In this document: positions 8,905-15,943 of the stretch, in pieces
How positions within the stretch are numbered: position 1 is the stretch's first letter
Layout of the letters: each line of letters opens with the position of its first letter
Source: an uncultured Clostridia bacterium
Lineage (GTDB): Bacteria > Bacillota > Clostridia > Christensenellales > UBA1242
Assembly (NCBI GenBank): GCA_947623775.1
Contig: CANQHL010000001.1
Span: 1 to 53,521 of the forward strand
Length of the DNA: 53,521 bases
Reading direction: 5' to 3'
The notes under the pieces: model-generated
Database searches by the model: none
The model's input: the letters and a program-made list of their open reading frames with translations, nothing else
What the model was told of the DNA's origin: nothing
Made by a program: the position numbers and the translations under genes

Positions 8905-9048
8905 ATGAAATATCAAAAATCAAATATTATATTGCCTATTACTTAGAAGAGAAAAGCGGAAAAGTTGTGCAAGAAAGACAAAAAAGTGGCATTGCCACAA
9001 ACAAAAGCACCAAAGATGGAGATGGCGATATACATCGATCTTGAATAA
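8905..9048 (+). pseudogene. Mini-ORF or remnant ending in YIDLE, interrupted by an in-frame TAG
   Basis: AGGAAAAAGAT-ATG at 8905. Frame 1 reads MKYQKSNIILPIT-TAG(8944-8946)-KRKAEKLCKKDKKVALPQTKAPKMEMAIYIDLE-TAA. It lies 9 nt after member A and upstream of the shared terminator at 9142. Confidence 0.4.
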
Positions 9049-11820: not shown

Positions 11821-11827
11821 AGAAAAA

Positions 11828-11855
11828 ATATGGACATTCAAGTCCATATTTTTTT
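11828..11855 (+). terminator. ppdK intrinsic terminator
   Basis: ATATGGAC-ATTCAA-GTCCATAT (8-bp stem) followed by TTTTTTT. Confidence 0.75.
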
Positions 11856-11869
11856 AATGCGTATAAATT

Positions 11870-12021
11870 TAAAATAATTAATCAATCTAAACAACACTGT
11901 TTTAAAACTAAAAAGAATCCAATCCAAATTAATATGGTGTATATACTAAAACATTATCAAATCCATATTAACATTGTTTATAAACTAAAAAATAGCCAAT
12001 TCAAAATCACTTTGTGTCAAA
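11870..12021. repeat. Degenerate tandem repeat, about 38-bp unit x4 (alternating units give a 76-77-bp periodicity)
   Basis: Units start at about 11870, 11908, 11946 and 11984, each beginning (C)TAAAA. Example: AACACTGTTTTAAAACTAAAAAGAATCCAATCCAAAT (11893) versus AACATTGTTTATAAACTAAAAAATAGCCAATTCAAAA (11970), with roughly three quarters of positions identical in my hand alignment. Confidence 0.45.
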
Positions 12022-12034
12022 ATTTTATGCTAAA

Positions 12035-12521
12035 TTATTCCAAGTCAATATAAGGTCTATCATAAAATCGAGGGTCAACAAATTCAGGGTTATCATCAGA
12101 CTTCTCTTGTGTTGCATTAATTTCATTAATGTGAGCAGGGCTAACAAGCTTTCCCGCTTTTTTACTTCCGTAATCAAAAATGCCGTTTTGAGTTTTATAA
12201 ATCATCAATTCATTTTTATAATCTTTTTTACAATCAACTACAATTTCATTAAGATGTTTTAGGTATTTTATGTATTTGAGAGAATCAGGCAGCGCTTTAA
12301 TTCTCTTAACTTCATTTTCCACATCTGCAATAGAAGCAGGGTAGCCAATAAAAAAAACATCCGTCGCTTTTTGGATTTTGTCCTAGTTTGTAGACGTAGT
12401 CGACATCACTTGGTAAATTTAATTTTTTAATATCATCTTCATCAGTTTCAATGTCTGTAAGGCCTTTATCAAAAGCCTGCGGATTTGTTACCGACCTGAT
12501 ACAATATTTATATTTTCCCAT
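12035..12521 (-). pseudogene. YLDLE-tail family member B, split by a +1 frameshift in an 8-nt homopolymer (track ORFs 12312..12521 and 12035..12322)
   Basis: The upstream ORF reads ...DDIKKLNLPSDVDYVYKLGQNPKSDGCFF and then runs out of frame through T8 (A8 on the + strand, 12350-12357). Removing one T gives ...CFFIGYPASIADVENEVKRIK..., which restores the family [YF]-x-I-G motif and joins the downstream ORF ending DRPYIDLE. A perfect promoter and a GGAG RBS lie upstream. Confidence 0.75.
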
Positions 12522-12537
12522 ATTTAACTCCGCTTAA

Positions 12538-12566
12538 ATTATAGCTGATTTAAAGCATCTTGTCAA
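12538..12566 (-). promoter_or_regulatory. Consensus sigma-A promoter for family member B
   Basis: The minus strand reads TTGACA (12566-12561), a 17-nt spacer, then TATAAT (12543-12538), followed by GGAG and the ATG at 12521. Confidence 0.65.
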
Positions 12567-12648
12567 TATGGAATTGGTGTATAATGTATTATATTTAAGG
12601 AAAAGAGCATTTTAAACAATATTTTTACAACCTCTTTTAAAATTTTAC

Positions 12649-12677
12649 TTTACATTTTTAAAAAAGAATGATATAAT
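12649..12677 (+). promoter_or_regulatory. Sigma-A promoter for rpoZ
   Basis: TTTACA (12649-12654), a 17-nt spacer, then TATAAT (12672-12677). GAGAGGTG RBS before ATG 12708. Confidence 0.55.
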
Positions 12678-12707
12678 AGTCAAGAAAATATAGAGAGGTG
12701 AAGTATT

Positions 12708-12908
12708 ATGATGATTGAACCATCAATTGATAGTTTACTTAACAAGGTAGGCGGGAATAGATATGTGCTTTGCAATGTAATCGCAAAAAGAGCAAAAGAA
12801 ATTGAAAGTGTAAGGAGACTTGAACTTGCCGACCAAGACAAAAAGGCGATAAGTATTGCTTGTGAGGAAGTTGCAAACGGCAAGATAAAGCCATCAGAGG
12901 AAAAATAA
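12708..12908 (+). CDS. rpoZ: DNA-directed RNA polymerase subunit omega
   Basis: MMIEPSIDSLLNKVGGNRYVLCNVIAKRAKEI matches the conserved omega N-terminus (PSIDxLL...RYxL...AKRAR). 66 aa. Confidence 0.9.
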   Translation: MMIEPSIDSLLNKVGGNRYVLCNVIAKRAKEIESVRRLELADQDKKAISIACEEVANGKIKPSEEK

Positions 12909-12930
12909 AAAAGTCAAAACACAAATAAAA

Positions 12931-12962
12931 GCACTCCGAGTTAAAAAGTGGAGTGCCTTTTT
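12931..12962. terminator. Bidirectional terminator shared by rpoZ and the convergent tail-family operon
   Basis: GCACTCC-(12-nt loop)-GGAGTGC, flanked by an A-run upstream and a T-run downstream. Confidence 0.65.
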
Positions 12963-13428
12963 ATTCCAAATCCAAATATGGTTTATCTTCAAAGTTTGGC
13001 TTGTAAAGTATGCTTCTGTTAAGTTTGCCATCAAAAATGCAGTTTGAGGGCAATAAAGTCGCATTTTTTCGCGGAAAACTGAAAATTTTATCTGTGTTTT
13101 TGAAAATAAAATTAGTTTTTGAAACTGATTCAAAGTTTTCTCTTAAATATTTAAGAAATGTCACATAATTTGAGTTTGTATTTTTTGAATATTGTAAATT
13201 TATAAGATTTTTATCAACATCTTGAAATTTTATTTTTTCACCAATAAAAAAAGTTTTGTTTTCAACATATTTGTTGCTTATTTTATCATATCTCATACAA
13301 AATACCGCCACGGTTTTCTCGGGTAAACCGGTGACATTAAATATGTTGTTATTATCACTGAATTGTTCTTTGATTTTTTCTTTTTTCTTATTATCAAAAT
13401 ATAAAATTTTATATTTGTAAATTATCAT
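12961..13428 (-). CDS. YLDLE-tail family protein, member C (last gene of the 5-gene operon)
   Basis: 155 aa with MIIYKYKILYF beta start, NIFNVTGLPEKTVAVF, TFFIGEKI, FIFKNTDKIFSF and LLPSNCIFDGKL blocks. Ends EDKPYLDLE-stop. Confidence 0.85.
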   Translation of the reverse strand: MIIYKYKILYFDNKKKEKIKEQFSDNNNIFNVTGLPEKTVAVFCMRYDKISNKYVENKTFFIGEKIKFQDVDKNLINLQYSKNTNSNYVTFLKYLRENFESVSKTNFIFKNTDKIFSFPRKNATLLPSNCIFDGKLNRSILYKPNFEDKPYLDLE

Positions 13429-13448
13429 TATGTTTTGTTCCTATTAAA

Positions 13449-14246
13449 TTATTCTAAATCATCATAAGCCTTACTTTCTGGGTCGTAAAATCCCTCTGCA
13501 TTGAAAAGTGCGGGACTTAAAATCTTTGTATTTTTGTCAATAATTGGGTGAATTGTCCCTGTTTTGTCTTTAAAAGCATTTGAAAGGTTGTGGCTTTTCA
13601 TAAAATCATATAGTGACTTATCTGCCAACATTACCTGTGATAATGAAAGAGGCGTTCCAATGGCAAAAGTCTCGATATTGATTTGTTCATTGTCTGGCGA
13701 CAAATCGAAAAGTTCAATGTAATTTTCTTTTGAGCTGGTTATTTGTACTTCCTCTAAATTGTGACTTTGAAGTTCATAGTGCTTTATATATCCTTCTGTA
13801 TATGAATAAACAAAGCGTGGAATATTTCTTTCAATGTTAGGATAACTTGCCGTAAGAGCAAAATGCCTTATTTGATTTTTATTGTTTCCGCTTTTGGTGA
13901 ACAAGATTGAGGATGGAAGAAGATTTGTTCTATCAGAAAATTCAACCAATGGTCCTTTATATAGGTGAAAAAGGGTTTTTGCACCTGTTCTTTTAAACTT
14001 TTTTAATTCCTGTGAATTTTCTCCATAAATAAGTTCTGCTTTTTCACGCGAAATCTTTTCGCCGATGAAATAGGATTTTGAATTTCCGTTTTTCTTGGTT
14101 AAAATAACCATATTTGTATCTTCGGGCAGTGGTATTTTGAAAATATCATCGGTATTAAAATGTTTTGTTGCAATCAAATTGAATTCGCCCTTGAAGAATT
14201 GAATTTCCACATCATCTGAAATTATTTTTGGTTTCAATGGTTGCAT
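13449..14246 (-). CDS. YLDLE-tail family protein, member D (apparent internal duplication of the family module)
   Basis: 265 aa. First half has DDIFKIPLPEDTNMVIL, SYFIGEKISREKAELIYGENS and NLLPSSILF. Second half repeats the pattern with TFAIGTPLSLSQV and KILSPALF. Ends ESKAYDDLE-stop. Confidence 0.85.
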   Translation of the reverse strand: MQPLKPKIISDDVEIQFFKGEFNLIATKHFNTDDIFKIPLPEDTNMVILTKKNGNSKSYFIGEKISREKAELIYGENSQELKKFKRTGAKTLFHLYKGPLVEFSDRTNLLPSSILFTKSGNNKNQIRHFALTASYPNIERNIPRFVYSYTEGYIKHYELQSHNLEEVQITSSKENYIELFDLSPDNEQINIETFAIGTPLSLSQVMLADKSLYDFMKSHNLSNAFKDKTGTIHPIIDKNTKILSPALFNAEGFYDPESKAYDDLE

Positions 14247-14274
14247 TTTTACCTCCGCTTAAGTAATAAAAAAT

Positions 14275-14865
14275 TTATTCTAGGTCTAAATATCCGTTAT
14301 CTTGATAGGTGCTTTTAATTTCCTCAGACTCGGAACCAGCATTTTGAGTCAAATTTTTATAATTGCTAGAATGCTTATAATATCCCTTTTCATCAAAGCA
14401 ATTTTCGTCAACAAATCCGTATTTGCATAAAAAGTCTGTTGCCCATATAGTTTGGGATTCGCTTCTAAGAAGAACAAGTCCGTCAAGGTAATACTTCTCA
14501 TTTTCTTTTTTAATATAAGGTGATTGAATTGAAATGCTTGTTAAAGGTGGGTTGTCGTTGATATATTTTTGTGATGACAAAAACTTTGAATAGCCGGACG
14601 GAAACAATTCTCTAATTTGTTCCCTTGAATAGTATTTACCTATGCAGTAAACAAGGTGATTGTAAGGACGTGATGATTTTGTCTCCCCATCATCGGCTAT
14701 CATTGCCACTTGCCTTTTAAAAAGAATTATGTTTGCATCTTTCGGAACGGGCATTGTGATATTGGACAGTTTGCAATCATCAATATCATATTTTGCAATA
14801 GGATTTATTGAATTGTCTGGGCCCACACTTGCAAATTCCACAAAAAATTTTTCAGTTGTTCTCAT
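14275..14865 (-). CDS. YLDLE-tail family protein, member E
   Basis: 196 aa with DDCKLSNITMPVPKDANIILF, VYCIGKYYSREQIRELF and the insertion KYYLDGLVLLRSE, which is shared with member G (RYQYDGWFLLRDG). Ends QDNGYLDLE-stop. Confidence 0.85.
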   Translation of the reverse strand: MRTTEKFFVEFASVGPDNSINPIAKYDIDDCKLSNITMPVPKDANIILFKRQVAMIADDGETKSSRPYNHLVYCIGKYYSREQIRELFPSGYSKFLSSQKYINDNPPLTSISIQSPYIKKENEKYYLDGLVLLRSESQTIWATDFLCKYGFVDENCFDEKGYYKHSSNYKNLTQNAGSESEEIKSTYQDNGYLDLE

Positions 14866-14874
14866 AATGTCTCC

Positions 14875-15300
14875 TTATTCTAAATCAAGATATCCGTTGT
14901 CACTGAAATCAGAAAGTTTGCCGTTTTCATTTATCATGTCTTTATCGATAAGATGAACGTTCAAGATGTGTGACAGTGGGAAAATATTTCCCGATTTCAT
15001 TATAATGGCATTTTTTAAATGATGTTTTTGTATGTATTTGTACTGAGTTGACGCTTCTCCAAACTTTTCATAAATTTCCCGAGATGTAAACGATGTTCCT
15101 ATGCAATAAGCATCAACATTTTTTGGATTTGAATAAATGCCGTCAATGAGTTCATCTTTTTCATAAAGAGTGATTAAATCTGCATTTTTTGGAATGTTAA
15201 CTTTAAAAATATCCTTAGCTTGTATTTCTTGCTCATTGTCGGGCGTAAGGATTTTGTTTTGAGAATATTTATAAAAATTTACAAAATATTTTTTGTTCAT
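14875..15300 (-). CDS. YLDLE-tail family protein, member F
   Basis: 141 aa with KYFVNFYKY, KDIFKVNIPKNADLITL, AYCIGTSFTSREIYEKFGEAS and NIFPLSHIL blocks. Ends SDNGYLDLE-stop. Only 9 nt separate it from member E. Confidence 0.85.
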   Translation of the reverse strand: MNKKYFVNFYKYSQNKILTPDNEQEIQAKDIFKVNIPKNADLITLYEKDELIDGIYSNPKNVDAYCIGTSFTSREIYEKFGEASTQYKYIQKHHLKNAIIMKSGNIFPLSHILNVHLIDKDMINENGKLSDFSDNGYLDLE

Positions 15301-15313
15301 TTTCTCTCCATTT

Positions 15314-15943
15314 TTATTCGATTTCTATAACATCGTCATCATAATTTTCTTCATCTGTACAAATTTCTTCATCATATAAACTGTCTGGATTGACTGTTGA
15401 ATTATTGATAGATGCTGTTTTGCTGATAAATCCGTTGCTATCAATAAGGCTTTTATCAAGAAGATTGCCAGCATAACCCCAGCCGTATGCAAATGAACCA
15501 TCACGAAGAAGAAACCATCCATCATATTGATAACGCCCGGTGACAGGGTCTTGAGAAATAGGTAAACCTTCATTGAATAGTTTGCAGACGTAAACAGTGT
15601 GTGCAGGGTTTCTACCACCTTGTAATTCTGCTTCACCTTCGAGGATAAATTGATATTCAGCTGAATTTTCGCCAAAAATATCGATAATTTGTTGTTTTGT
15701 AAGATAAGTGCCAATCATAAATGATTTACTGTTCGCACACGTTTCTGTTATTTTTGGCTCTTTTTTAAAAAGTCGTTTTTTTTCAATAACTTCATAATGT
15801 TCCAAAATAATGCCTATGGCGTTGTCTGGTATTTGTCCCAAATCATCAAATCCAAAACTTGGAATATCGCGTGTTAAAATTGTTCTATTGTTAATGTCTT
15901 TAAAAGTTGCAACTGTTTTGAAATAGACTCGCTTGGTTGCCAT
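15314..15943 (-). CDS. Tail-family protein, member G (first gene of the operon; degenerate tail VIEIE)
   Basis: 209 aa with RVYFKTVATF, FDDLGQIPDNAIGIIL and SFMIGTYLTKQQIIDIFGENSAEY blocks. The acidic C-terminus ends NYDDDVIEIE-stop. GGAGG RBS upstream. Confidence 0.8.
   Translation of the reverse strand: MATKRVYFKTVATFKDINNRTILTRDIPSFGFDDLGQIPDNAIGIILEHYEVIEKKRLFKKEPKITETCANSKSFMIGTYLTKQQIIDIFGENSAEYQFILEGEAELQGGRNPAHTVYVCKLFNEGLPISQDPVTGRYQYDGWFLLRDGSFAYGWGYAGNLLDKSLIDSNGFISKTASINNSTVNPDSLYDEEICTDEENYDDDVIEIE

Follow-up and report, generated by a model that had tools for sequence, protein, structure and literature searches.

Organization of the split gene

The window, by which we mean the whole 53,521-nt stretch of DNA analysed here, belongs to a 1.31-Mb MAG (126 contigs, 34% G+C, 78% complete) from a genus with small genomes of 0.7–1.4 Mb. 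On its minus strand, two ORFs of 69 and 95 aa form a single gene of 161/162 codons, a member of a family with a Y-[LI]-D-[LI]-E ending, that is split at a run of eight T residues. The original prediction had described these two ORFs as halves of one family gene, and tracing the frames on the minus strand confirmed it. The locus comprises the following features:

11823–11854, minus strand: terminator-like hairpin common to the split gene and the convergent pyruvate phosphate dikinase gene
12035–12052, minus strand: family tail Y-I-D-L-E plus stop, at the end of the 3' part
12035–12382, minus strand: 3' part in frame +1, 115 open codons, stop at 12035
12312–12521, minus strand: 5' ORF of 69 aa, ATG at 12521, stop at 12312
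12350–12357, minus strand: T8 run (A8 on the plus strand), the site of the frame change, matching a 10-nt T6-C-T3 tract of the intact sister allele
12358, minus strand: substitution adjoining the deletion; the sister allele has TAT (Tyr), the window TGT (Cys)
12528–12531, minus strand: GGAG ribosome-binding site, 6 nt upstream of the ATG by direct reading and conserved in orthologues
12538–12566, minus strand: sigma-70-type promoter, TTGACA-17 nt-TATAAT, with 12 of 12 matches

Direct reading of the coding strand at the break gives GGA TGT TTT TTT TAT TGG, which places the junction within T8 (A8) at 12350–12357, as had been predicted. The first 57 residues of the 69-aa ORF (MGKY...DGCFF) match the restored reading and are followed by 12 out-of-frame residues, YWLPCFYCRCGK, and a stop. 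The listed 95-aa ORF (12035–12322) begins at a GTG codon, and the 3' part contains no ATG. Translation of this 3' ORF on its own was considered and judged unlikely, because direct reading finds no Shine-Dalgarno sequence before the GTG, which is its first start. When one T is skipped, a single 161-aa reading is obtained (P0001, ...KSDGCFFIGYPASIADVENEVKRIK...DRPYIDLE), in agreement with the earlier claim that a T7 tract restores the gene through to its tail; the addition of two T residues likewise restores the frame, and the split gene contains no further stop or indel.

The exact promoter and the GGAG site noted in the original prediction are indeed present, and both promoter hexamers are conserved at the orthologous loci L012, L005 and L006. 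Since all orthologues share exactly these hexamers and this GGAG, and the alleles are only about 2% apart, the perfection of these signals in the window is uninformative: it reflects simple inheritance and provides no evidence of continued use. A tandem array of five genes (12961–15943) is separate from the split gene, with rpoZ, encoding the omega subunit on the other strand, lying between them.

Family context and predicted structure

When the Y-[LI]-D-[LI]-E ending was sought with a loose pattern, 27 ORFs in the genome matched; most of them have the tail itself, and their N-terminal parts are mutually unrelated. No Pfam or NCBIfam family was found for either half of the split gene or for five paralogues. 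The subfamily is very rare: among 1.84 billion representatives, a profile search recovered only 6 relatives. Within the genus, searches at the DNA and protein level, covering 40 and 100 genomes, revealed no orthologue and only weak hits at the level of paralogues, and scans of genome contigs and JGI metagenome contigs gave no match.

The predicted structure consists of a single alpha/beta domain (residues 1–128) followed by a disordered linker to the tail (mean pLDDT 66, pTM 0.59), and a fold search of the PDB with this model returned no match with E below 1. The break falls in the strand formed by residues 55–58, a placement held with moderate confidence because the mean pLDDT is 66. In the same model, the 69-aa stub would retain only the first strands and would lack both helices, three strands and the tail.

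Orthologous loci and origin of the T8 run

The closest intact allele was found at a locus that also adjoins rpoZ (L012, ENA ERZ27249609) and is about 97.6% identical to the window. Its product, P0006, is intact at 162 aa and belongs to the same 90% cluster. The L012 tract, GGATATTTTTTCTTTATTGGC, is 2 nt longer than its window counterpart, GGATGTTTTTTTTATTGGC; in codons it reads GGA TAT TTT TTC TTT ATT GGC (T6-C-T3, FFF-I-G). Relative to this allele, the window is two bases shorter, TC or CT having been lost, and carries an adjacent A-to-G change that replaces Tyr with Cys. The tract is T6-C-T3 in L005 and T4-AC-T3 in L006, both in frame, and the proteins P0002, P0004, P0008, P0009 and P0011 are likewise in frame, with one residue more at the site than the T7 reading gives. 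In every orthologue the tract is interrupted by C or AC, and no homopolymer occurs at the site.

A comparison of the tract among relatives had been proposed as a check on the original prediction. The orthologues being in frame speaks for inactivation in the window, but the closest intact relatives carry T6-C-T3 and not the expected T7. Because the closest intact relative has a 10-nt interrupted tract, the window allele must have lost two bases, and the homopolymer would thus be the product of this 2-nt loss and not an older tract that slipped. Either the deletion itself created T8, or a C-to-T change first made T10 and a 2-base loss followed; the two routes would be indistinguishable in the resulting sequence. 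Gene conversion and a diversity-generating retroelement template were also considered as sources of the change and rejected, because neither the gene nor the tract occurs a second time in the genome.

The orthologue P0002 (L005:211-813, Logan SRR29273038) carries a 39-aa internal tandem duplication over YKLG...FxFIG, the segment that is broken in the window allele.

Constraint and turnover in the family

Between the split gene and its L012 counterpart, 10 nonsynonymous and no synonymous changes were counted, compared with 0 and 2, respectively, for rpoZ in the same strains. Among the intact orthologues, pN/pS ranges from 0.57 to 0.9, against 0.11 for the neighbouring rpoZ. By these counts, the gene is weakly constrained.

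Other members of the family show signs of decay. A short frame at 8905–9048 on the plus strand ends in ...MAIYIDLE but is interrupted by an internal stop, and probably represents what is left of another tail-family gene that has decayed. Furthermore, the sequence of contig L018 (ENA ERZ27249041) is otherwise identical to the intact P0004 gene (L006:888-1400), and an extra T in a T5 run (GGCATTTTTGAT) splits the gene. This T5-to-T6 frameshift could be a real second inactivation or, because the coverage is 1.3x, a read error.

Two observations concern the neighbourhood of the split gene. In the adjacent paralogue (window 12961–13428, compared with L012:210-596), the two strains are separated by an in-frame indel of 84 nt and by strong divergence at the 5' end, although the flanks are 97–99% identical. 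Structural change is thus concentrated at this locus, and the indel, like the 39-aa duplication in P0002, is a further sign of turnover. In comparisons with L006, the pS of the tail-family gene (0.26, from the intact sister L012) is far below that of the adjacent rpoZ (0.62, from the window, 12708–12908), whereas nonsynonymous divergence goes in the opposite direction (0.23 and 0.07). This contrast could result from gene exchange between lineages or from a limit of the counting method.

The T8 run in independent assemblies

The same T8 recurs in two further ENA assemblies from other samples, so that the lesion is reproducible. The first of these sequences (L004, ENA ERZ27249187, 803 bp, 1.9x) aligns to window positions 11918–12720 with one substitution, at 12702, and no gap, and therefore carries T8. 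The second (L015, ENA ERZ27249662, 734 bp, 1.8x) is 100% identical to the window over 717 nt (12198–12914), T8 included, and the gene call of ERZ27249662 is the exact 69-aa stub protein (P0007). Both have coverage of only about 1.9x and, judged by adjacent ERZ accession numbers, apparently come from the same study as the MAG. The remaining 11–12 homopolymers of at least 5 nt in each of these spans are all unchanged in length relative to the window. A gene call on L004 in which TAG is read as Gln was dismissed as an artefact of the gene caller, since the genome reads normally under table 11.

Assessment of alternative explanations

A homopolymer error in sequencing or assembly, the first option raised by the original prediction, would mean an intact gene whose real tract is T7, T10 or T6-C-T3. 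Homopolymers are a classic site of such errors, the MAG is fragmented and 78% complete, and the low-coverage contig L018, from another orthologue, differs from its twin solely by a T5/T6 indel. What weighs against this explanation is that both further assemblies have T8 and that their 1.5 kb contain no additional indel. A simple miscount would also not account for the window allele, which is separated from the intact one by 2 nt and an adjacent substitution. Genome-wide, long A/T runs show no excess of frame breaks: 1.3–2.3% of runs of 4–8 nt lie at junctions where one ORF gives way to another, with no rise with run length, and the few A8/T8 cases at such junctions are gene ends or non-coding DNA. 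Moreover, the dnaX A9 tract, which is conserved across the genus, was assembled as A9 in this genome. Given the repetition of T8, the unchanged lengths of the other runs, the correct dnaX A9 and the lack of a run-length trend, an error at T8 is very improbable, and a platform-specific systematic error behind the shared T8 is unlikely.

Programmed frameshifting, which the original prediction had also entertained, is refuted by the orthologues, each of which is a single in-frame ORF with an interrupted tract and shows neither a slippery run nor a two-frame layout; as the site is not conserved, programmed recoding is excluded. A weaker version would leave the DNA at T8 but allow some full-length protein through RNA-polymerase slippage (to U7 or U10) or +1 ribosomal slippage on UUU UUU. 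By sequence reading, tRNA-Phe would re-pair perfectly after a +1 slip inside the run. Some organisms slip productively on 8-nt runs, and about 10% rescue is described for the human apoB A8 (Baranov et al. 2005, PMC1088944). The genus itself relies on slippage at the A9 run of dnaX (C10:19060-19068; L020 1704-3169, minus strand), where the gene is split at A9, followed by C and a stop, and the C-terminal domain lies in the -1 frame. This junction is kept in all 30 genus genomes examined (as A10 in one), and the A9 is a conserved recoding site needed for full-length tau; the split layout of dnaX has already been described (Antonov et al. 2013, PMC3711429). The direction of the required shift, however, is the wrong one at T8. 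Rescue needs a loss of one nucleotide, a gain of two or a +1 frame shift, none of which is the favoured slip, since slippage on A/T runs yields mainly single-base insertions, with deletions rarer (Traverse and Ochman 2017, PMC5574713), and a -1 slip on the heptamer U UUU UUU also leads to the wrong frame. The same study found no restored frames transcriptome-wide (PMC5574713). No pause is expected at the next codon, UAU in the A site, because it is the common Tyr codon (9175 vs 2867), and the RNA further downstream shows no notable fold (z = -1.56). A/T runs number 1188 at 7 nt, 233 at 8 nt and 12 at 9 nt in this genome, and no run is longer; this cut-off between 8 and 9 nt agrees with the 9-nt length from which slippery runs are usually selected against (Baranov et al. 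2005, PMC1088944). With the site unconserved among orthologues as well, leaky rescue at T8 is decidedly unlikely. The known cases of programmed slippage (Thermus dnaX A9 and other two-ORF dnaX genes, PMC3711429; Shigella mxiE and IS elements, PMC1088944) resemble the present locus in having overlapping ORFs joined at a homopolymer. The dnaX site of the genus is 9 nt long, conserved base for base, and works by a favoured change, either an additional A or a shift to the -1 frame, whereas T8 is strain-specific and requires the loss of one base or the gain of two.

In insect endosymbionts, frameshifted genes are reportedly rescued by polymerase infidelity at poly(A) tracts (Tamas et al. 2008; discussed in PMC5574713). 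The likeness to the window extends to the AT-rich small genome and the frameshift in a homopolymer, but the reported tracts are longer than T8.

Slipped-strand switching would make T8 a reversible contingency tract: a length of 8 would turn the gene OFF, a length of 7 or 10 would turn it ON, and expression of this family member would vary across the population. Intragenic contingency loci are known from the poly-G/C genes of Campylobacter, Neisseria and Haemophilus and from the poly-A tracts of mycoplasma surface-protein genes, and here, too, a mononucleotide run lies early (in the 5' third) in a gene of a variable family, with its length setting the frame, which is restored by the loss of one base as well as by the gain of two. 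Repeat-based switching also appears to be used elsewhere in the genome, as 10 of 16 poly-G tracts of at least 8 nt lie between -35 and -10 hexamers. Those obvious switch-like tracts are, however, G9–11 runs in promoter spacers, unlike the coding T run considered here, which is an 8-nt A/T run that is interrupted in every orthologue and thus not kept as a repeat. No length variant appears among the assemblies of this allele, T8 being present in three of three. A collection of 15 billion proteins contains no T7 version of the gene, no other close in-frame allele and, by a search with the 69-aa stub, no truncated form of another kind. Runs of this kind are ordinary in the genome, 119 of its 233 A8/T8 runs being located inside intact ORFs of at least 120 aa, and the mismatch repair genes mutS and mutL are present. 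Furthermore, the T8 haplotype has lasted long enough for a SNP to separate samples, which makes it a stable lineage marker. Slipped-strand switching is therefore unlikely as the explanation of the allele and, at T8, possible at a low rate only. A combined possibility, in which a deletion-born T8 acts as a slow reversible switch or permits low-level read-through (by a -1-base transcript or +1 ribosomal slippage), so that the gene would have a very low or variable dose instead of being dead, seems to us similarly improbable.

A probable recent null allele in a dispensable family member

The very recent inactivation named among the options of the original prediction is the one supported by the intact sister allele L012 and by T8 in independent assemblies. 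The window most probably carries a real, evolutionarily recent loss-of-function (null) allele of a weakly constrained gene. In this strain lineage, two bases were lost from a T-rich stretch that codes for Phe-Phe-Phe-Ile and lies in a core beta-strand of the predicted domain; the loss probably fused two T runs into T8, and it shifted the remainder of the gene to the +1 frame. As the signals for transcription and translation initiation are intact, the main product should be the 69-aa stub, with the first strands of the domain only, no helices and no Y-I-D-L-E tail, while the 3' part, devoid of start signals of its own, would probably not be made. We infer that function is lost and that the loss is neutral or tolerated within a large, weakly constrained paralogue family. 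The expression signals are still perfect because the frameshift is young. A T8 run can nevertheless revert, by the loss of one base or the gain of two, and might permit slight slippage.

Understood as a null allele, the event is an ordinary gene loss that affects a dispensable gene in an orphan family with fast evolution. Strain-specific frameshift pseudogenes in accessory, fast-evolving families share several features with it: one small indel within a T-rich run, sister strains whose orthologues are intact, and further decayed copies in the family. Nothing essential differs, the one twist being that the deletion created the homopolymer here and no older run changed in length. For annotation, the two ORFs at 12035–12521 should be merged into a single frameshifted gene, marked as a null allele at the strain level, instead of being listed as two small proteins, and the assembly should not be "corrected" at T8. 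For the tail family, the allele indicates that members are weakly constrained and easily lost, as expected for an accessory family evolving by birth and death. More generally, the mutation behind a frameshift can itself give rise to the homopolymer found there, instead of being caused by it, which calls for caution when phase variation is called from a single genome.

Poly-G/C tracts in promoter spacers

The genome has no poly-G/C run of 7 nt, one of 8 nt and fifteen of 9–11 nt. Those of at least 8 nt that lie between hexamers (10 of 16) are flanked by TTGACA and TATAAT or TAAAAT, with spacers of 15–21 nt. The tracts occur on contigs C2, C14, C28, C35, C48, C60, C81 and C110, outside the window (e.g. 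C14:13447-13455). Several poly-G tracts are located upstream of proteins with hydrophobic, signal-peptide-like N-termini, and near-identical promoter copies vary in the number of G residues (G9 in C48, G10 in C110). The poly-G tracts in promoter spacers are candidate phase-variable promoters.
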